A stretch of DNA of 64,000 bases. Source: Candidatus Aenigmatarchaeota archaeon (GTDB lineage: Archaea; Aenigmatarchaeota; Aenigmatarchaeia; CG10238-14; SpSt-28). Positions 23,068 through 43,268 of the stretch are shown piece after piece (within the stretch, counting starts at the first letter, position 1; each line of letters starts with the position of its first letter). Where the stretch lies: positions 436,169-500,168 of the forward strand of contig JAWBAK010000001.1 in NCBI GenBank assembly GCA_038997165.1, in the 5' to 3' direction. Both the position numbers and the translations under genes were made by a program. The notes beneath the pieces are model-generated. The model made no database searches. It was not told the DNA's origin and was given only the letters and a program-made list of their open reading frames with translations.

Positions 23068-26000
23068 TTAAAAAATATTCTTAATTTCCATACTTTCTCT
23101 GTAAATTTCTTTTAAAATTTCTAGATAATCAATTTTATTTTCTTCAATTAAATCCATTTTTCTTTCTAAATCTCTAGTTAATTCTTCGCTAATGTATTTT
23201 TCAAACTTAGCTTTTAAATATTGATAAACTTCTTTTCCTCTTTTTGTAGCAATAAGTTTATTTTTTCTAGAAATAGCATACTTTCTTTCTAAAATTTTTG
23301 AAATAATTGTTGCATAAGTTGAAGGCCTTCCTATTCCTCTTTCTTTCATCAAAGAAATTATATCTCCTTGAGAAAAAAGAGAAATAGAAGGTTTTCTGAA
23401 ATAATCTTTTTCAGGATCAAAAGATTTTATTTCATATTTTCCTTCTTTTAATTCAATTTTTTTTATCTTTATTATTTTTGTAAATCCTTCTTCAATAATT
23501 TTTGTAATAAATTCTTCTTCTTTTTCTAAATCTAATAATTTAAATTTAAATTTTGTTTTTTCAACTTTTGCAGGTTTCATTTGGCTAGCAATAAATCTTT
23601 TAAAAATTAAGTCATAGAGTAATAAATGATCTTTAGTAATTTTAACTGGTAATTGTAATAGTTTTAATCTAAGCAATTCAATTAATCTCTCAGAATCTAT
23701 AGGTTTTGTAGGTCTTATACATTCATGAGCACCTTCTTTCTCCCAACTTCTCGGATAAAAAATTTTTTCTTCAAAGTTTTGAATAATATATTCTTTGGCT
23801 ATATTTATTCCAAATGAAGAAACTGTAGTAGAATCTGTTCTATGATAAGTTATTAAACCACTTTCAAACAATTCTTGAGCAATTTTCATTGTTTTATTTG
23901 AATCAAATTTTAAAATATTTGAAGCGTCTTTTAATAAAGTATCGGTAGTGTATGGTGGCAATGGATTTAAAATTTCTTCTCTAACTTCAACAACTTTAAC
24001 TTCAACATATGGATAATTTACAATTTTTTCAAAAAATTTCTCTTTCTCTTCTTTCTTTAATTTTTCAAATTCAAAAATAATTTTAATATTATCGAATTTT
24101 ATTCTTAAATAGTCTTTTATACTATTTTTACTTTCTTCTGTTCTTTGAATTATCCAACCTAGTACTGGGGTTTGAACCCTACCTGCAGATAATGTTTTTC
24201 TATTAAACTTTTCTTGAACTTTTTGGCTTAATTCAAAACCAAACCATCTGTCTTCAATTCTTCTAACAATTTGAGATTTAACTAAGTTTAAATTTATTTC
24301 TCTAGGATTATTTATTGCATTTCTAATAGCTCTATATGTTATTTCATGAAATTCTAATCTTTTAATTTTTTTATTAAAAAATCTTAAGAAATTTGCTATA
24401 TCAAATCCTATTTTTTCTCCTTCTGCATCTGGATCAGTTGCTATTAGTATTTCATCTACTTCTAAACTTAAATCTCTTAGAACATTTAAAATATTAATCT
24501 TATCTAATAGCTTTTCATTATCTTTTGGACAAAAAGAAATATTATCTGTATATTGAGAATTACATTTTGGACAAATCTTTATAGTTCCGTATATTGGAAT
24601 AAAGTTATTATCTTTGACTAAAACTCCGTGAAATCCCTCTTTTGTTACTAAATCGAAAACATGTCCTATACTAGCTGTTATTAGCAATATATAATCGCCA
24701 GTTGAAACTTCATAAATTCTTATACCATCTATATCTCTAATTGCTGGCGTTCCAAAGAACTTTGCAATTGTTTTTGCTTTTGTAGGACTTTCAACAATTA
24801 ATAAACCTATTTTTAATAATTCTTTTAGCTTTTTTATTTCTAATTTCCCTTCTTTTATTTTTCTTATTAATTCTCTATCTTTATTAATTTCATTTAAAAT
24901 TTTTTCTAAATTAACATCCTTTATATTTTTAAATTCTGCTTTTTCGTCAAACCATTTAATTTTCTCTTTTAAACTATTGAATGCTTTTTCTTCATCGATT
25001 AAAACTAAGCTTAAACCTTTTGAAATTCCTCCCGCATATAATCTGCTTGTTCTTCCACTTGCTTGAATATATGCTTGAACATCAGCAATTACAAAATAAA
25101 ACTCTTCTTTATTTTCTTCAAAAACAAGCTTCTTACTATTTTTTAATTTTTCTATAAAATTCTTATTTTTTAATAAATCTTTTATAAACTCATAACTTTC
25201 TTTTAAAACTTGTCTACAATATTCTAAAAATCCTTCTAATTTTTTGTTTTGATTAATAGCTTCTATTACAATTTTTGCATTCTCTTCACTTAAACTTCCT
25301 ATCTTTCTTAATTTGTTTATAATTAAATCTAGCTTATCTTTTTCCTCTTCTTTTTCTAAATATTCCCTTAAGTGTAATAGTAGCATTATTATTTTTCCAG
25401 GTCTAAATTCAGAGAGATCAATTCTAATTTTAAATTTTGGTACTCCAGCAAAAATTGCATATCTTATCACTTCTGGCAAATCTATTCCTCTAGCTAAGGG
25501 ACTTCTATAAGAAGCAATTCCAATCAATACTTGTATATTTCCAGAAATAAAATCATTAATTATTGATAATTTTGTTTTTTCTAGAGTTTTTGCGTTTATT
25601 CCTTTCGAATTTAAAAACTCTTCTAATTTTTTTGCATATTCAATTCCTTTATCCATAGGAACAAAAATTAAGCCTCCATTACCGAATTTTTTAACATATT
25701 CATAAACTTTTTCTTCAATGTTTTTTTCGAATTCATAAACATCTTCTACATTCCTTATTCCTTCTATTCTTGTTCCAATTTGAAAGTTTAATAATTCGTT
25801 AAATAACATTACTCTTTTTGTTTTTGCTCTTACAGAAGCTCCACTTACAATTAAAATTTTATTTATTGGTAAGGAATTTTTGATAATTTTTTTATTTTCT
25901 TCTATCTTTTCTTCTATATTTTTTCTTTCTTCTTCAGATGCAAAAATTAAACTTCTTCTCAATTCTACATTTTCCATTGCTTTTTCTATTATTTCATCAC

Positions 26001-26715
26001 TAAATCCTAAAAGATTTAAAACCTTATTTATATTTTTAGAAGCTTTTAAAAATGAATCAACATCATCAACAAGAATTACATCAAAAGAAATATCTTTTAT
26101 TAATTCAAATTTTTTAGCTAAAAACATATTAGTAGTTATAAGAATTTGAAAATCTCTATTTTTTAGCTTTTCTAAATTTTCTTCTTTTTCTTTTTTCTTT
26201 AGGAGCGAATGAAGAGCTATAATATTTGTTTGAAGATTTAAAGTATCTTTAAATTTTTTGAATTTTTCAAAAACTTGAGAGACTAATAAACTAGTTGGAA
26301 GTAAGAAATAAATTCTTTTCTTAAATTTTGTAGCTAAATATAAAGATAAAATTATTAAAAATGTTGTTTTTCCTGTTCCTGTAGGAGCCATTATTGCAAA
26401 AGATTGATTTTTAAAAACTCTTATTGCCCACATTTTTTGAGCACTCCAAGCAGAAGAATTTATAGCTTTTTTAAAAAATTTTAAAAAATCATTTACTTTT
26501 TTAATAAGTTTATAATATTTATTATAATTTTTTAATGTGTAATTTTTTCTAAGTAGTTTAATTATTTCTTTATAAAATTTAATACTTCCTGGCTTCAATT
26601 TTTTAATTTCTTCTGGAATAATTGGTAAGCATTTTTCACAGGGTAAACTATATACTATTCTTTCATATGAAATTTTTCCGCTACAATTTGGGCATGTATT
26701 TTCATATATTAACAT
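23068..26715 (-). CDS. rgy: Reverse gyrase
   Basis: N-terminal Zn finger, APTGTGKT, DDVD, YIQASGRTSR, IVESPTKA TOPRIM, ATDPDAEGE, SAGRVQTP, ITYHRTDS. Confidence 0.97.
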   Translation of the reverse strand: MLIYENTCPNCSGKISYERIVYSLPCEKCLPIIPEEIKKLKPGSIKFYKEIIKLLRKNYTLKNYNKYYKLIKKVNDFLKFFKKAINSSAWSAQKMWAIRVFKNQSFAIMAPTGTGKTTFLIILSLYLATKFKKRIYFLLPTSLLVSQVFEKFKKFKDTLNLQTNIIALHSLLKKKEKEENLEKLKNRDFQILITTNMFLAKKFELIKDISFDVILVDDVDSFLKASKNINKVLNLLGFSDEIIEKAMENVELRRSLIFASEEERKNIEEKIEENKKIIKNSLPINKILIVSGASVRAKTKRVMLFNELLNFQIGTRIEGIRNVEDVYEFEKNIEEKVYEYVKKFGNGGLIFVPMDKGIEYAKKLEEFLNSKGINAKTLEKTKLSIINDFISGNIQVLIGIASYRSPLARGIDLPEVIRYAIFAGVPKFKIRIDLSEFRPGKIIMLLLHLREYLEKEEEKDKLDLIINKLRKIGSLSEENAKIVIEAINQNKKLEGFLEYCRQVLKESYEFIKDLLKNKNFIEKLKNSKKLVFEENKEEFYFVIADVQAYIQASGRTSRLYAGGISKGLSLVLIDEEKAFNSLKEKIKWFDEKAEFKNIKDVNLEKILNEINKDRELIRKIKEGKLEIKKLKELLKIGLLIVESPTKAKTIAKFFGTPAIRDIDGIRIYEVSTGDYILLITASIGHVFDLVTKEGFHGVLVKDNNFIPIYGTIKICPKCNSQYTDNISFCPKDNEKLLDKINILNVLRDLSLEVDEILIATDPDAEGEKIGFDIANFLRFFNKKIKRLEFHEITYRAIRNAINNPREINLNLVKSQIVRRIEDRWFGFELSQKVQEKFNRKTLSAGRVQTPVLGWIIQRTEESKNSIKDYLRIKFDNIKIIFEFEKLKKEEKEKFFEKIVNYPYVEVKVVEVREEILNPLPPYTTDTLLKDASNILKFDSNKTMKIAQELFESGLITYHRTDSTTVSSFGINIAKEYIIQNFEEKIFYPRSWEKEGAHECIRPTKPIDSERLIELLRLKLLQLPVKITKDHLLLYDLIFKRFIASQMKPAKVEKTKFKFKLLDLEKEEEFITKIIEEGFTKIIKIKKIELKEGKYEIKSFDPEKDYFRKPSISLFSQGDIISLMKERGIGRPSTYATIISKILERKYAISRKNKLIATKRGKEVYQYLKAKFEKYISEELTRDLERKMDLIEENKIDYLEILKEIYRESMEIKNIF

Positions 26716-28239: not shown

Positions 28240-29211
28240 ATGGATGTCAATAGAACTGCAAAAATTAAATTAATAGGTTTAATGTTATTTTTAATTTTTT
28301 CTTTGTCGTTAATTTTTGCAGAGGAAAAAAAAGAAGGTATAAACATTACAGAAATTACAGAAATTATAATTGCTATATTACCAATTATATTTGTTATTTT
28401 AATTTTACTTTATTTGGGTGGTTTTTTAAAATTTGGAAAAGTAGGAATACCTTGGCCTATTATTATTTATTCAGCAATTATAATTATAATTTTTGTATTA
28501 CCTATATTACAAAAGTTTGGAATTATACACATATTTCCAGATAATCCAGACGAAATATTTAGCAGAGAAGAGTTTAAAGGATTTAAACAATATAAATTAC
28601 CAGAAGGAGTATGTAAAGCATTTCTTTCTTTAAATATTAGTGAAAGTGTTTCTTGTTATATGCCTGCGTTCATATATTTCTTTTTATTACCTTTTGTTTC
28701 AATATATGCAATTACATGGGCATTTTTAAAACAGATTAAAATTTTTGAAGGTTTAGGTAGAAACCTAGAAGGATTGATTGCGTTTATTATAGCTTTTATG
28801 ACACTTCCAATGGGTACTTTTATTTTATTAGTAGCACTTTGGTTTAGTGTAATGGGTGCATTTTCAATAGCAATTTTTGTAGCTATGTTTTTGGCTGGTG
28901 TGTTTTTCAGGGGTTTAGGATTCGTAGAGGAAAAGCGCTTTGAATATATTGGAAAAAGAGCTAGGGATGAATACTTAAGAAAAGTACATAATGCAGCAAG
29001 ATTAGCAATAGACAGAATTAATAGAGCTAGTGACGTAGATGAAATAATAAGAGCTGTATATCAATTTATTGAAAAGACTGGACATGATGTAGATTTTAGT
29101 AAAATCGATGAAATTAGAAAGAAATCTAATTTAGAAGATGCTAAGAAGGCAGCAACAAGTCTGATAGAGGAATTAACTTCTAAAACAGGTTCAGCTTCTA
29201 AAACAGGTTAA
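28240..29211 (+). CDS. Multi-pass membrane protein, paralog of 32568 and 33122
   Basis: Signal-like N-terminus, several TM segments, FLLPF...W..L...KIF motif, charged C-terminal tail. Confidence 0.75.
   Translation: MDVNRTAKIKLIGLMLFLIFSLSLIFAEEKKEGINITEITEIIIAILPIIFVILILLYLGGFLKFGKVGIPWPIIIYSAIIIIIFVLPILQKFGIIHIFPDNPDEIFSREEFKGFKQYKLPEGVCKAFLSLNISESVSCYMPAFIYFFLLPFVSIYAITWAFLKQIKIFEGLGRNLEGLIAFIIAFMTLPMGTFILLVALWFSVMGAFSIAIFVAMFLAGVFFRGLGFVEEKRFEYIGKRARDEYLRKVHNAARLAIDRINRASDVDEIIRAVYQFIEKTGHDVDFSKIDEIRKKSNLEDAKKAATSLIEELTSKTGSASKTG
29177..29209 (+). repeat. 15-bp direct repeat CTTCTAAAACAGGTT x2 (period 18)
   Basis: Seen at 29177-29191 and 29195-29209; encodes TSKTG/ASKTG at the protein C-terminus. 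Confidence 0.8.
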
Positions 29212-31436
29212 TAAATTCTTTCCATAATTCTTTCTTCCCATCTTTTATAAATTTCATTAGAATCTAATTTTCCAATCTCGTTTTTTACTTCTTCAGAGAT
29301 TAGATTAAACAATTCATTACTCCATACAACAAACTCAGCCTCTAAAAGTTCTGGTCTTTTAAGTTCTTCGCTTAGTTCAACTAATCTTTGTTTTATTTTT
29401 GCTCTAAGTAAAATATTATTCCATACTAAATCCCAATTTCCATAAAATTCTGGAATTCTTTTTGAAATTTCTCTTATAACAAAACTTTCTCCATTAATTA
29501 GTGTTTGAGTTGGTAATAAGGTATCTTCTTTTGCATTATAAATCATTAATGGAGCAAATGCATTTTCAGCTAATGGATCTTCTTCCCAATGTTTTTTAAC
29601 TTCGACAACTTCAACAACTCTTTTATATCTTCTTAATCCATCTGCAGATTTTAAATTTGCAGAAATTATTATTAAATCTACCGCTTTAAAACTTGTTTTA
29701 GGAACTTTAAGATCATTAACAACTCTATCGAAAACTCCATATGCAGATTCTCCATGAATTGTTCCAGCAACACTATGTGCCAATGCACCAACTCTCATTG
29801 CTTCAAAAAGCGTTAATGCTTCTGTAGATCTAATTTCTCCAATTATTAATGCACTATCTCCCAATCTTAATGCAGTTCTTAAAGCTTCTTCAGCAGGTAA
29901 TTCGCTTTCTACTTTTGTTATTACACTTCTAGATTTTAATCTTTCGATATTAAATCCTAATTCTCTCATTTGTGGTACAGGCAATTCTAAAGTATCTTCG
30001 ATAACAATTATTCTATATTTTCTGGGAATTTCTAACATTATTGCTCCTAATAAACTAGTTTTTCCTGAACCTCTTCCACCAGCAACTAAAAAACTTCTTC
30101 CACCAGCAACTATAAAATTCATTAATCCAGCAAACAAAGGATTAATTGCTTTCTTTTTTATTAATAATGGTAAAGTCCATGGTTTATCTCTATGTCTTCT
30201 AAAGGCAAATGATAAACCTTCTGGATTTAAACTTCTTGTAGTAATTGCTACTCTAGCTTTTCCCTCTGGTATTGATAATTCAGTATCTAAAACTGGATTT
30301 GCTTCATCTAATGGTCTTCCAGAATATAATCTAAACTTAGTTGCCCAATTTTCAGCTTCTATAGGAGAAATTACTATATTTGTTTCACATTCCTCGTAAT
30401 TTGCGTGTTGAACAAAAATTGGAAGCATTCCTATTGGTGCATTAACATAAATATCTGTAACATTTTCATCTGCAAGAATTCTTTCTAAAATTCCAAAGCC
30501 TACAGTATATCTAACTAGAATATCTGCCAATTCTTTCATTCTTTTTTCTGGAATCGGTATGTTTAATTCTTGTGAAACTCTTTTAATTAAGTCTAATTCT
30601 AAATTATAAAATGCTTCTCTTGTCTTTTGAAAATCTTTTAGTTCAGTTTCACTTGGTCTATGTTCTGCTAAATATTCTCTAACTTTTTCTAAAACCTTTA
30701 TTTCATCGCTTGTTAATAAAAATTCTGGTGCATATAAAACATATACATATCTAACTTTGTTCGGAACTTTATAAATTTCAACTTTTATATTTTTAAATTC
30801 ATATTCTTCAACTTTTATTGAATTTTTTGGTAATGTTAAATAAAATTTTGTTTCCATGAAGATTGGTCTTATTATTGGGGAAAAAATCTCTCTATAAATT
30901 CTTCTATCTCCAGGTCTATATAAATAATTTTCTTCTATTTCTTTTTCTCTCAATTTTTTTATTATATAAAGCTTTTCTAATTCTTCTAATATAGGATTTA
31001 TATGATTTTCAACAAAACTCTTCAAAATATAATCTTTATTTTTTATTGAAATAAACTCCAATCTATTTTTTAATGAAATAAGTTTTTTATAACTTTCAAT
31101 ACAATCTGATTTTATGTTTTCTACTATTTCATTAAGAAGATTAAAATAATTCGAAAGTTTTTCGAAAAATTTAATTTCTTCTGGAAATGCTGTTAATAAT
31201 TTTTTTGAATGTATATTTTCGTAACAATTGGCAATTTCTTTCAATATCTTTGTTTGTTCATAATCATATTCTAATTCTCTTTCTCCAACGATTAAAATTT
31301 CTATAATATTTTTGTTTGCAATTAGATTTTCTATAACTAATTTCATTGTTTCTTTTCCATCTTCAATTGTTATTAAATCATTCCAACCAGCTCTTAAGTC
31401 TATATATAGTTTGTTTTCTCTTATGTTAATTTCCAT
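29208..31436 (-). CDS. Type II/IV secretion ATPase (FlaI/TadA/VirB11 family) with long N-terminal extension
   Basis: GGRGSGKT Walker A, IEDTLEL Asp box, ALRLG..LIIGEIR Walker B, GTIHG His box. Confidence 0.92.
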   Translation of the reverse strand: MEINIRENKLYIDLRAGWNDLITIEDGKETMKLVIENLIANKNIIEILIVGERELEYDYEQTKILKEIANCYENIHSKKLLTAFPEEIKFFEKLSNYFNLLNEIVENIKSDCIESYKKLISLKNRLEFISIKNKDYILKSFVENHINPILEELEKLYIIKKLREKEIEENYLYRPGDRRIYREIFSPIIRPIFMETKFYLTLPKNSIKVEEYEFKNIKVEIYKVPNKVRYVYVLYAPEFLLTSDEIKVLEKVREYLAEHRPSETELKDFQKTREAFYNLELDLIKRVSQELNIPIPEKRMKELADILVRYTVGFGILERILADENVTDIYVNAPIGMLPIFVQHANYEECETNIVISPIEAENWATKFRLYSGRPLDEANPVLDTELSIPEGKARVAITTRSLNPEGLSFAFRRHRDKPWTLPLLIKKKAINPLFAGLMNFIVAGGRSFLVAGGRGSGKTSLLGAIMLEIPRKYRIIVIEDTLELPVPQMRELGFNIERLKSRSVITKVESELPAEEALRTALRLGDSALIIGEIRSTEALTLFEAMRVGALAHSVAGTIHGESAYGVFDRVVNDLKVPKTSFKAVDLIIISANLKSADGLRRYKRVVEVVEVKKHWEEDPLAENAFAPLMIYNAKEDTLLPTQTLINGESFVIREISKRIPEFYGNWDLVWNNILLRAKIKQRLVELSEELKRPELLEAEFVVWSNELFNLISEEVKNEIGKLDSNEIYKRWEERIMERIY

Positions 31437-31464
31437 AAATATATATTTTTAATGATAAACAATT

Positions 31465-31851
31465 ATGGTAGAAAAAATAAGTTCTCAGGATCAAAAAATT
31501 ATAAATATTCTTAACGACATGAATTTATATTTAAAATTTTTAGAACAAAGAATTATTAAATTAGAATTGGAGTTAAAAACTTTGAATGAAAATTTTGAAA
31601 AATATAGAAAAACGGTTATAGAAGAAATAGATAAACTAAAAAAAGAGAGTTTATCTCTTAAAAATTTGATAGATTCTTTAAATTTAGAAATAGAAAAAAT
31701 AAAATTAGAATTGAAGAAAAAAGCAGATTTAGTTGAAGTTAAAGAAATAAAAGAATTATTTAATCTTTTTAATCCGCTTAAATCAACTTTTGTAACGAAA
31801 GAAGAAGTTAAGAGAATTATAAACGAATTAATAAATATTAAAAAAGAATAA
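31465..31851 (+). CDS. Coiled-coil hypothetical protein
   Basis: 128 aa, continuous heptad pattern, L/E/K rich. Confidence 0.75.
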   Translation: MVEKISSQDQKIINILNDMNLYLKFLEQRIIKLELELKTLNENFEKYRKTVIEEIDKLKKESLSLKNLIDSLNLEIEKIKLELKKKADLVEVKEIKELFNLFNPLKSTFVTKEEVKRIINELINIKKE

Positions 31852-31857
31852 TTTATT

Positions 31858-32568
31858 ATGATTTTATTTGGTAGTAAAAAAGAAAAAAAAGAAGGTAAGG
31901 GAGAAATTCCAACAGAAAAAGTCAAAAATTTTTTAAATAAAGGGTTTAGCGAAATAGAAATTATTGATATTTTAAGAAAGGAGGGATATTCGCCAGAAGA
32001 AATTGATAAAGCACTTATGCAAGCTTCTATCGAAATAAAATCTTCTCAATTATTTCAATCTCCTCAAACTTCATCGCAACAAAATTTAATTTCTCAAAAT
32101 TTATCTTCTCAATCTCAAATTCTTCAACCTCAACTTCAAACTTCTCAATCAACTTCTTTACAAACTCAAATAGTTGAAGTTAAGCCAGCTCAACCTACAA
32201 GTATACAAAAAGAAGTTAAAGAAAGTTTTGAAGAATCTCAGATAGATTATATAAGTTTACAAGAATATATAGATTACTTATTGAGATCAAAAACTCAAGA
32301 AATAAATAAAAGATTGATGGAAATAAATTTAAAGTTTAAAGAGTTCGAAGAAAGGGTTTTAAGTTTAAAAGATGAAATCGAATCTGTATCAAAAGGTACG
32401 AAAGAAGATTTAAATAAGATTTTAAATGAAATAAGATTAAATAGAGATAATATAAATGATTTATCAATAAAGGTTGAAACTTTAAATAAAACTTTAAAAG
32501 AACTTTTACCATCTTTAATAGAAAGCGTAAGATTATTAAGTGAAATAATTCAAAAACTTAAATCATAA
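31858..32568 (+). CDS. Hypothetical protein: small helical N-domain, Q/S/P-rich linker, C-terminal coiled coil
   Basis: KGFSEIEIIDILRKEGYSPEEIDKAL; low-complexity SSQ/QSPQ linker; heptad C-terminal half. Confidence 0.78.
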   Translation: MILFGSKKEKKEGKGEIPTEKVKNFLNKGFSEIEIIDILRKEGYSPEEIDKALMQASIEIKSSQLFQSPQTSSQQNLISQNLSSQSQILQPQLQTSQSTSLQTQIVEVKPAQPTSIQKEVKESFEESQIDYISLQEYIDYLLRSKTQEINKRLMEINLKFKEFEERVLSLKDEIESVSKGTKEDLNKILNEIRLNRDNINDLSIKVETLNKTLKELLPSLIESVRLLSEIIQKLKS

Positions 32569-33125
32569 TGAATACTTTAGAAGAAATAATAAGAAATACT
32601 TTAATAGATACTGGAATAATAACTTTTATTGTTCCCTCGCTATTATTTATGACTTTAGTTTATGTTTTTCTAACTCGATCAAAAATTGTTGAGTCAAAAG
32701 CGATAGCTGGAATAATTTCTTTTTCAGTTTTTTTATTAGTATTAATTTTTCCAATAATATCTGGAATTAATATTTCAATATTTCTTTCAACTTTTTTTGT
32801 TCAAATGTTTTTTCTAACTTTAATTCTTTTAATAGGTTTGGTAACTTCTTCTATATTTTATTCGGATTTTTCAAAAGTATTAGAGAGATTTCAAAGAAGC
32901 AGAAGTATGGTAGTAGCTATGATAGTATTAGCAATAGTAATTTTTGTTACTAGTGGAATGTTATCTTTTCTAATTTCAACATTGGGAGGACCTTCTGTTG
33001 CTTATGAAAAATTTGAAGGAAAAGCTGTACCAACTGAATTTACATTTACTCTAGCTCTTTTAGTTTTGTTAGTTATATTTGCAGTGATATTAGTTGCTGC
33101 TGGAAGGTTGATTGGTAGAGAATGA
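32568..33125 (+). CDS. Multi-pass membrane protein (paralog family)
   Basis: About 5 TM segments; FIVPS...Y..L..SKI motif. Confidence 0.78.
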   Translation: MNTLEEIIRNTLIDTGIITFIVPSLLFMTLVYVFLTRSKIVESKAIAGIISFSVFLLVLIFPIISGINISIFLSTFFVQMFFLTLILLIGLVTSSIFYSDFSKVLERFQRSRSMVVAMIVLAIVIFVTSGMLSFLISTLGGPSVAYEKFEGKAVPTEFTFTLALLVLLVIFAVILVAAGRLIGRE

Positions 33126-33658
33126 GCGATCCTATTACTGAATTAATTTTAACTCTTCAGAATTTAGGTTTTTTTAAATTTATTATTCCATTTATTTTAA
33201 CATCTGCAGTTTTTTATGGATTATTAAGAAAAAGTAAAATATTTGGAGATCCGAGAGAAAATATTGCCGTAAATGCTACTATTGCAATTTCTGCAGCTTT
33301 TTTAGTTTCTGCAGCTCCTATAATTGCTGGGATTGATATTACTTCTTATCTTTCTGGTTTCTTAATTTATATAACATTTGTAATTGTTGCAATAATTGTA
33401 ATTTCTTTTATTCCGTTTATTTTTAAACCTTCAATAAGCGAACTAGGAGCAACAATTAATAAAAAAACTTTTTTAGTAATGTTTTTTATTACTCTTATAA
33501 TTTTTATTATTATTGGTTTACTAATTTTTAAAAATTTAAATTTTGCATTTCCTCAAATAGCTTCCGAAGAATTTTATTCGACTTTAGGTTTAATAATATT
33601 TCTTATAATATTTTCAATAGTAATATATTTTTCTTTACGACCAACAAAAACTAGTTAA
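33122..33658 (+). CDS. Multi-pass membrane protein (paralog family)
   Basis: About 5 TM segments; FIIPF...Y..L..SKIF..NA.IA motif. Confidence 0.78.
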   Translation: MSDPITELILTLQNLGFFKFIIPFILTSAVFYGLLRKSKIFGDPRENIAVNATIAISAAFLVSAAPIIAGIDITSYLSGFLIYITFVIVAIIVISFIPFIFKPSISELGATINKKTFLVMFFITLIIFIIIGLLIFKNLNFAFPQIASEEFYSTLGLIIFLIIFSIVIYFSLRPTKTS

Positions 33659-41852: not shown

Positions 41853-42862
41853 TAATTATTATAGGTGCGGGAATTTCTGGTTTAAGTTTATCCTATTTTT
41901 TATCTTCTTTTGGAATAAAAAATTTAGTAATAGAAGTGAAAAAAGATGTTGGGATTAAGCATAGAAGCACTTGTTTAGTTTCTTCGAAAATTTTTAGATT
42001 ACTAAAAGTTTTAAGTAAAAATATAATTTTGAAAAATTATAGAGTTGCAAACTTTTGGTATGAAAATAAAAAAATATTTAGTGTAAAGAGTAAAAAAGAA
42101 ATGTTTTTATTAGATTATTTACAATTAGAAAAAGAAATATTCAATAATATCGATAAAACATTTTCTAATTTTTTATTCGAAGAAAAAGTTTTAGATGTTA
42201 ATTTTGACAAAAACATTTTAATTACAAACAAAAGAAAAATAAAATTTGAATATATTATAGATGCTACAGGAACCTTTTCTTTTTTAGCAAATAAGTTTAA
42301 TTTGTTTAAATTTAAGAAAATATTTAATTCTTTTGAGATTTTAGCTATTCCAAAAAAGAAATTTGAGGATATTAATATATTTTTCGATAGAAAATTTTCA
42401 AAAACTAAATTTGGTTGGTATATAGATTTAAGCGGAAAATCACTCATTGGATTAATTGATCAGAAGTTGGATTTTCAAAAATTTTTGAATTTTATTAAAA
42501 AATTCGAAATTGTAAAAATATATTATTCATATTCTCATCCTATATTATATTGTGAATTAAAGAAATTACGATTAAAAAATAGTTTAATAATAGGAGAAGC
42601 TGCTGGTCTAATAAAACCATTTAGTTTAGGTGGAATAACTTATGGAATAATTTCTTCATTCATTGCAGCTAAAACAATTAAAAATAATGAGATAGAAAAG
42701 TATGAAGATAAAATAAGAAAAATCTTTTTAAAGCCAATAATTTTTGGTAAATTCATAGATAAAATATTAAAATATAAAGTTTTTTTACAAACTATTTATT
42801 TTTTTAGATTAAACAATTTATTTAATTTTTTAGATCCTGACTTTATGAATATAAACATTTAA
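41849..42862 (+). CDS. FAD-dependent oxidoreductase, geranylgeranyl reductase-like (divergent)
   Basis: IIGAGISG, IDATG, IGEAAGLIKPFSLGGI. Confidence 0.75.
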   Translation: MIIIIGAGISGLSLSYFLSSFGIKNLVIEVKKDVGIKHRSTCLVSSKIFRLLKVLSKNIILKNYRVANFWYENKKIFSVKSKKEMFLLDYLQLEKEIFNNIDKTFSNFLFEEKVLDVNFDKNILITNKRKIKFEYIIDATGTFSFLANKFNLFKFKKIFNSFEILAIPKKKFEDINIFFDRKFSKTKFGWYIDLSGKSLIGLIDQKLDFQKFLNFIKKFEIVKIYYSYSHPILYCELKKLRLKNSLIIGEAAGLIKPFSLGGITYGIISSFIAAKTIKNNEIEKYEDKIRKIFLKPIIFGKFIDKILKYKVFLQTIYFFRLNNLFNFLDPDFMNINI

Positions 42863-43268
42863 TTCCTCTACATTCGTAAAATATTTGTTTATCTTTAAAA
42901 CCTTCGCAAATACCAGCTACTATTATTGTTATTTGTGTTTTATTGCATTCGAACTCTATATTTTCAGTTATAATATTTCCAACGTCTAAAACATTTATCA
43001 TTTTTGTAAGATTTTTTCCTTTATCTAAACAAATAAAATCTATAGTTACATTCTCAGATTTTTTTCCAGCTTTGTGTTGTAGAACACAAGTATTTATATG
43101 AGTATTATTGTGACTACATTTTAGTTCAATTGTATTCATACAAATATCTGGAATATTTGATGTTTGAAAAGAAATATAGGAATTAAAAAAATGCCATAAA
43201 AAAACAGCAGCTCCAACAGTTATAATTGCTAATAAAACAGTAGCTATTAATGGACTAATTCCTTTCAT
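42843..43268 (-). CDS. Archaeal type IV pilin
   Basis: Class III signal MKG|ISPLIATVLL followed by hydrophobic helix; Cys-rich head. Confidence 0.85.
   Translation of the reverse strand: MKGISPLIATVLLAIITVGAAVFLWHFFNSYISFQTSNIPDICMNTIELKCSHNNTHINTCVLQHKAGKKSENVTIDFICLDKGKNLTKMINVLDVGNIITENIEFECNKTQITIIVAGICEGFKDKQIFYECRGIKCLYS

Follow-up and report, generated by a model that had tools for sequence, protein, structure and literature searches.

Probable half of a split type IV filament locus in an Aenigmatarchaeota genome: a pilus-type secretion ATPase with two coiled-coil proteins and three membrane paralogs

The subject of this study is a 64,000-nt stretch of DNA from a Candidatus Aenigmatarchaeota archaeon (assembly GCA_038997165.1, contig JAWBAK010000001.1), referred to here at its full length as the window, with all window coordinates counted from its first letter. 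Six neighboring genes in the window encode a 742-aa secretion ATPase, two coiled-coil proteins (CC128 and CC236) and three membrane proteins (M185, M178 and M323; Table 1). Together, they probably make up half of a locus, now split, that encodes a type IV filament (pilus-like) machine conserved across the 'cluster 2' DPANN archaea. In the proposed machine, the ATPase would be a hexameric motor that most likely docks on a FlaJ/TadC-type platform protein, which in this genome appears to have moved to another contig (C2), where its neighbors include a 901-aa membrane protein and several small proteins that carry a hydrophobic helix at the N-terminus and are candidate filament or surface subunits. 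The two coiled-coil proteins and the three membrane proteins would be lineage-specific accessory parts, with the membrane paralogs probably forming a hetero-oligomeric module that holds a coiled-coil scaffold beside the motor and the platform.

The motor itself is readily classified. It matches T2SSE (Pfam PF00437, 4.3e-17) and, below the respective cut-offs, the NCBIfam models for FlaI (1.4e-44; 152.8 bits against a cut-off of 550 bits) and TadA. Its closest solved relative is the Archaeoglobus GspE (afGspE, 2OAP; 3.4e-35), ahead of CpaF and FlaI (7.5e-22 for FlaI), and its Walker A (GGRGSGKTS) and Walker B (IEDTLEL) motifs align with those of afGspE. Orthologs were found in 41 of 41 genomes of the order, at 49-97% identity, and in other DPANN phyla at 45-55% identity. 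Of the genome's four secretion ATPases it is the best conserved, with 45-55% across phyla versus approximately 30% to its paralogs. This long type of ATPase is present in a single copy per genome. Some orthologs (G004:C7, G024:C80 and G034:C1) reach 920-1400 aa through an insert near residues 477-484, in the Walker B region, and three database orthologs (P0079, P0090 and P0096) contain intein and LAGLIDADG Pfam domains.

Since the alignments to solved relatives begin only at residue 207 (afGspE) or 290 (CpaF and FlaI), approximately 200 N-terminal residues (about 1-205) are additional to the known fold, in agreement with a sequence-only reading of this DNA that preceded the current analysis. 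The ATPase also has a conserved C-terminal region. Residues 1-300 were modelled with AlphaFold2 (AF2) from an alignment of 90 orthologs (pLDDT 91). The model predicts an alpha/beta unit (residues 1-77) and a helical bundle (residues 85-169), and a Foldseek search with it returned no match. The VIA wide search gave generic helical bundles as its best result (Z 8.1 over 64 residues), which is within noise and was not taken as evidence; Vta1/LIP5 MIT-like domains (Z 7.3 and 6.6) were likewise discarded as helical-protein noise. Most orthologs have conserved cysteines in the N-terminal region (consensus NCxNC plus two more Cys positions), and these are missing from the genus of the window (ATPase residues about 15-140, window 31020-31390, - strand), a difference in sequence that suggests the loss of a metal site from this region.

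Evidence for a filament machine also comes from the platform gene. To compare gene neighborhoods, regions surrounding the ATPase ortholog were collected, 20 of them from the order and 80 from public genomes, where 609 of 615 pattern matches encoded a relative and the best 80 were kept. The public loci were labelled as Aenigmatarchaeota, Woesearchaeota, Nanoarchaeia/Nanoarchaeota and Nanohaloarchaea, some of the metagenome-assembled genomes being mislabelled. Five doubly fetched loci were removed for non-redundant counts; platforms were counted in loci with at least 2.5 kb downstream (n = 78) and accessory genes in loci whose flank upstream of the ATPase reached 4 kb or more (n = 68). Clustering of open reading frames (ORFs) over the loci identified a family of approximately 700 aa with 84 members in 81 loci. 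Of these members, 66 immediately follow the ATPase on its strand and 14 lie farther downstream, and the family was present in 68 of the 78 non-redundant loci. Eleven of 37 members match T2SSF (PF00482; best 1.5e-7), among solved structures the family profile retrieves GspF alone, and weakly (E 0.32), and a profile of the TadB/C proteins of the genome under study aligns at 92% (hhalign) with the second half of that genome's own FlaJ-like member, described next.

The genome under study encodes an ortholog of this family, a 664-aa ORF at C2:32393-34387 that matches all 84 members (best 2.4e-135, phmmer) and scores 26 and 23.7 bits against T2SSF in two scans. The platform required by an archaeal type IV filament system is therefore present in the genome, outside the window. 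The sequence-only reading had correctly noted that no TadC/FlaJ or pilin gene adjoins the ATPase: a profile scan of the window gave no T2SSF match, and the nearest pilin-like gene is 9.2 kb away. The broader claim that the ATPase lacks a TadC partner is not supported at the level of the genome, as a putative partner appears in a search of the genome and its orthologs are adjacent to the ATPase in most relatives. That reading had itself named docking on a TadC encoded elsewhere as the outcome that would speak against its model, and the ortholog on C2, together with the adjacency seen for 66 of 84 family members, points to exactly that arrangement.

The platform and the ATPase are not adjacent in the genus of the window and its nearest relatives (L035-L038), where M323 holds the platform's slot, and genome G001 is likewise split, with the platform on C17 and the ATPase on C15. 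The genome G035 is fully contiguous, carrying the paralogs, the coiled coils, the ATPase, the platform, a homolog of the 901-aa protein and three small anchored proteins. In the genome under study, the genes divergent from the C2 platform encode the 901-aa membrane protein and five further proteins that all have a hydrophobic helix at the N-terminus; one of the five is 402 aa long and the other four measure 119-131 aa.

A survey of the genome leaves the long ATPase in need of such a partner. The three other secretion ATPases are each located next to their own TadB/TadC-like pair, and the fifth T2SSE match is a 610-aa PIN-ATPase-KH protein (C2:67477-69309, - strand) that is not a secretion motor; its domain make-up fits the MJ1533-like group, which is placed outside the secretion systems in the relevant section of Makarova et al. 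2016 (PMC4858521). The long ATPase and two long platforms thus remain as unpaired parts. The second of these platforms (C1:333914-335980, 688 aa; 2.1e-49 to the C2 platform) had no direct Pfam match. Its surroundings hold no ATPase; they encode small proteins anchored at the N-terminus, a beta-propeller protein, a papain-like protease and a 917-aa protein of coiled-coil/Ig-like type. Across the phylum, a profile search detected the long platform in 60 of 61 genomes, 16 of which have at least two copies. Since each genome holds just one long-type ATPase, a single motor probably serves one to three long platforms, and the ATPase may also work with the second platform and the surface-protein cluster around it.

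The accessory genes recur with the motor. A block consisting of the ATPase, CC128, CC236 and two or three membrane paralogs is found across Aenigmatarchaeota, Woesearchaeota/Nanoarchaeia and Nanohaloarchaea. In the 68 loci with sufficient upstream sequence, the CC128 family was present in 48, the CC236 family in 50 and the paralog family in 44, with CC236 and the paralogs occurring together in 43. Among the first 20 loci, from the order, phmmer found CC236 in 18 and the paralogs in 17; L047 and L053 had neither. The paralogs follow CC236 on the same strand in Aenigmatarchaeota loci, and three paralogs lie on the opposite strand, convergent with CC236, in Woesearchaeota-type loci. The sequence-only reading had expected a conserved neighborhood, and the conservation extends far beyond the lineage of the window; its description of the machine as lineage-specific is too narrow for a system that spans several DPANN phyla.

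Several observations weigh against placing all six genes in one filament machine. CC236, the paralogs or both are absent from the ATPase flank in 25 of the 68 loci. In the five genomes searched whose ATPase locus lacks paralogs, tandem paralog arrays were found elsewhere in all five, and two of these arrays adjoin a CC236-like gene (the other three were viewed with only about 1.5 kb of flank); the link of the paralogs to CC236 thus appears closer than their link to the motor. Every part is nearly universal among the sampled genomes of the phylum, and co-occurrence therefore does not discriminate between readings. As for filament subunits, a hydrophobic helix marks the N-terminus of the small proteins next to the platform, which lack the usual archaeal K/R-G/A prepilin motif and match no pilin family, and the sole match to a prepilin peptidase (A24 family; C2:80740-81057) scores 23.6 bits against a cut-off of 26.5 (E 3e-5). 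Elsewhere, a 141-aa ORF in the window (42843-43268, - strand) begins MKGISPLIATVLLAIITVGAAV (MKG-ISPLIATVLL), a textbook archaeal class III (prepilin) signal. This ORF matches Pilin_N only weakly (17.8 bits, under the cut-off), sits between housekeeping genes, and might serve any of the genome's four pilus motors.

Some of these observations would also be expected if CC128, CC236, M185, M178 and M323 formed a separate machine, for example for membrane maintenance, envelope organization or cell-cell contact, that lies beside the motor only through inherited gene order or shared regulation. The retention of CC236 by two of the five unlinked arrays agrees with such a machine, as does the presence of paralogs in 61 of 61 sampled genomes of the phylum, with 2-6 matches in each except G063, which has one. 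Two extra short family members in a housekeeping context (C1:310692-311269), as well as the housekeeping genes that flank the locus in the window (including a GINS-domain protein by Pfam), point in the same direction. However, CC236 and the paralogs stay in the ATPase flank in 43 of 68 loci over phylum-level divergence, where little other synteny survives and the next commonest neighbor family reaches only 23 loci, and in the window the start codons of the ATPase and CC128 are divergent and a mere 28 bp apart. On balance, a separate machine is unlikely.

The three membrane proteins are paralogs, as had been proposed from a shared motif. Used as a strict pattern, that motif retrieves exactly these three proteins among the 1228 six-frame ORFs of at least 50 aa in the genome. 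M185 and M178 are clear paralogs (BLASTP 2e-8), and M323 matches the other two weakly in pairwise comparison (8e-4 and 0.014) but matches a 100-sequence family hidden Markov model (HMM) at 8.5e-11. The family consensus reads G-x-F-x3-LPFLL-x-F-x3-YA-x-L-x-K-x-K-x-FG. An AF2 model of M178 (pLDDT 85) predicts a short N-terminal helix followed by five long helices, and an N-out, C-in topology is suggested by where Lys and Arg lie in the sequence. In M323, an N-terminal hydrophobic segment is followed by two transmembrane (TM) helices, a loop with Cys, the family core (about residues 140-235) and a C-terminal helical tail of approximately 95 aa, and only the closest relatives (L035-L038) carry an ortholog of it downstream of the ATPase. 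An exhaustive profile search with a threshold of E 0.001 recovered 3,967 cluster representatives of the family. Almost all of the top 150 measure 171-245 aa, and one protein (P0097, 365 aa, two matched stretches) is a natural tandem fusion. Two adjacent short ORFs of 101 and 91 aa (C1:310692-310997 and 310994-311269), located among translation-related genes, contain only the N-terminal conserved part of the family (HMM 2.8e-12 and 4.7e-08).

The position of a paralog in the array is reflected in its phylogeny. A quick FastTree phylogeny of 141 members, with long branches, separates the Woesearchaeota-type paralogs into three position-specific clades (support 99, 87 and 100). In Aenigmatarchaeota, there is a position-1 clade that includes M185 (support 95) and a position-3 clade (support 97), and most position-2 paralogs share one clade (support 93) that excludes those of the genus and family to which the window belongs. 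M323 joins other long members in a group of their own that has weak support; because it lies outside the position-3 clade of this quick, long-branched tree, the idea that it is a relocated third-position paralog was rejected.

The expectation that these membrane proteins belong to no known family also holds. A Pfam scan of 100 members found no common family, and the scattered matches (Acyl_transf_3 in six members, DUF2070 in four and DUF350 in three) were not adopted; the DUF350/YjfL label on a few database homologs of M178 was dropped because DUF350 matched just 3 of 100 members. Foldseek found nothing in the PDB for the M178 model at E 0.001 or better, the best result of the VIA wide search (Z 7.2 over 59 residues) is helical-protein noise, and the ESM Atlas returned only archaeal clusters annotated as 'hypothetical protein'. 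A literature search found no description of the family.

We consider it improbable, though worth stating, that the coiled-coil and three-paralog module is an undescribed membrane apparatus that has recruited a pilus-type ATPase through a dedicated N-terminal docking region, in which the paralog hetero-oligomer would be the conduit of a gated symbiont-host contact or transfer site and not a passive scaffold. The model of the sequence-only reading, in which the ATPase has no platform and drives a membrane channel made of the three paralogs themselves, is very unlikely. Such a channel would accommodate the lack of a T2SSF gene in the window and the position of the paralogs on both sides of the ATPase. 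It also has a possible parallel in subclade 4D of the Thermoproteales, where an ATPase accompanies a 4-5-TM protein that belongs to no known family and could be a diverged TadC (Makarova et al. 2016, PMC4858521, in the part on that subclade). However, the genome contains a cognate long platform that is adjacent to the ATPase in most relatives, and the paralogs do not resemble one: none of 100 members matches PF00482 at E 0.01 or better, and hhalign gave the paralog profile 0.1% against the TadB/C profile and 0.5% against a FlaJ-like protein, compared to 92% for the positive control, with the Tad profile being thin (6 sequences) and extreme divergence being possible. The proposal that the paralogs replace the platform is thus not upheld.

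The size of the long platform, a single polypeptide of approximately 670 aa, is FlaJ-like, and FlaI is the best NCBIfam model for the ATPase. Archaellum genes are scattered in some Nanobdellati (PLoS Genet 2026, PMC13705601, in its passages on gene arrangement), but it is highly improbable that the two proteins are the ArlI/ArlJ pair of a scattered archaellum, given a FlaI score far under the cut-off, a closer relationship of the ATPase to afGspE than to FlaI, and no match to archaellin (PF01917) in a genome that is 94.5% complete.

The coiled-coil proteins connect the locus to previously described systems. Searches of Pfam and NCBIfam assigned no family to CC128 or CC236, giving only coiled-coil noise, and neither protein has a TM segment. 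CC236 starts with a small helical domain and ends in a coiled coil, the two being joined by a Q/S/P-rich linker. Its matches in NCBIfam and the PDB (SpiroCoCo, ASRP, Rad50 and sigma-1) are all coiled-coil look-alikes, including the best solved match of the family profile, reovirus sigma-1 (6GAO, 3.5e-7). Hamm et al. 2024 (PMC11291902), in the portions of the article dealing with gene neighborhoods, describe a pair of conserved loci that encode CpaF, TadC and coiled-coil proteins (CCPs) and are found in Nanohaloarchaeota, Woesearchaeota, Pacearchaeota, Nanoarchaeota, Aenigmarchaeota and Undinarchaeota, and liken the CCPs to reovirus sigma-1, 6GAO. Since the best solved match of CC236 is the very entry named for those proteins, CC236 is probably a CCP.

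The lineages (Aenigmatarchaeota, Woesearchaeota, Nanoarchaeota and Nanohaloarchaeota), the core of a pilus-type ATPase, a TadC-type platform and a coiled-coil protein, and the shared 6GAO match all suggest that the locus examined here and those of Hamm et al. are the same. There are also differences, in that the same portions of that article do not mention the 5-TM paralogs, the second small coiled coil or the extra N-terminal region of the ATPase, and the platform has left the locus in the genus of the window. What is new is therefore the 5-TM paralog family, with its fixed gene order and occasional fusion, the pair of cytoplasmic coiled coils, and the N-terminal region of approximately 200 residues in the ATPase, which has no recognizable solved fold.

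Compared to the archaeal type IV pili, the filament machine proposed here shares a GspE/FlaI-family ATPase, a T2SSF platform and a scattering of pilins and accessory genes; in the sections of Makarova, Koonin and Albers 2016 (PMC4858521) on clades 2 and 4, pili are described as ATPase/TadC modules with scattered pilins, and the passages of PMC13705601 on Nanobdellati are similar in this respect. It differs in that the ATPase and the platform are also separated from each other, the ATPase is approximately 200 residues longer at its N-terminus, and two coiled coils and two or three 5-TM paralogs are not among the parts named in those sections of either article. Subclade 4D of the Thermoproteales (ATPase arCOG05558 with the 4-5-TM protein arCOG05557/arCOG13890), compared by its description in the same part of PMC4858521, resembles the locus in having an ATPase with an extra N-terminal domain (Cys-rich there and in most orthologs here), small polytopic proteins of no known family and a locus free of pilins. 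That system consists of two components and lacks a recognizable TadC, whereas a recognizable long platform is present in the genome studied here.

In the archaellum (ArlX/ArlCDE) and in bacterial pili (PilM/N/O), coiled-coil and small membrane proteins scaffold or align the FlaI/PilB-type ATPase and the platform. By analogy, CC128, CC236 and the paralogs might fill a comparable role, although Pfam, NCBIfam and PDB/fold searches found no sequence or fold similarity to the ArlX/ArlCDE or PilM/N/O parts. Gene order suggests that the accessory proteins of the proposed filament machine may act as scaffold, anchor or motor regulator.

The ORF listing confirmed all six genes at the coordinates given in Table 1, and these coordinates, together with the spacer sequence, bear out the earlier observation of a 742-aa FlaI/GspE-type ATPase divergent from two coiled-coil genes across 28 bp. 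The genes are tightly packed. Base 32568 is common to the stop codon of CC236 and the start codon of M185 (a 1-base overlap), M185 and M178 overlap by 4 bp, and M323 and the ATPase are convergent and also overlap by 4 bp.

Table 1. Genes of the secretion-ATPase locus and the spacer between its divergent units, in window coordinates
Feature	Position	Strand	Description
M323	28240-29211	+	long, divergent member of the membrane-paralog family
Secretion ATPase, 742 aa	29208-31436	-	GspE/FlaI/TadA superfamily
Intergenic spacer, 28 bp, AT-rich	31437-31464	.	divergent, between the start codons of the ATPase and CC128
CC128, 128 aa	31465-31851	+	cytoplasmic coiled coil; first gene of the CC128-CC236-M185-M178 unit
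CC236, 236 aa	31858-32568	+	cytoplasmic; coiled coil at the C-terminus
M185	32568-33125	+	first-position membrane paralog, about 5 TM
M178	33122-33658	+	second-position membrane paralog

The region has a G+C content of approximately 24% and belongs to a genome of 652 kb. All flanking genes that could be identified are housekeeping genes; a neighboring protein has GINS domains (Pfam), and ribosomal proteins and SecY, named from their sequences, appear to be encoded nearby. A 1215-aa ORF (window 23068-26715, - strand) resembles an unsplit reverse gyrase, with a helicase-like N-terminal half and a topoisomerase-like C-terminal half, and would fit a hot-spring origin of the DNA; the sequencing runs that contain this DNA are hot-spring metagenomes. 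Database homologs of M178 carry Aenigmatarchaeota labels.

These results have consequences both for annotation and for the biology of DPANN archaea. An ATPase that appears to be an orphan in its locus does not, in this case, indicate a platform-less machine, as in this genus the locus has been divided. DPANN archaea rely on touching their host cells, a process for which few genes are known; a text search of two cryo-electron tomography papers on other DPANN co-cultures (PMC11420986 and PMC11329633) found no mention of this ATPase. A role of the system in host interaction is plausible, and the coiled coils and the 5-TM family, which comprises approximately 4,000 cluster representatives and has no Pfam entry, are candidate parts of a pilus base or contact apparatus in these archaea.

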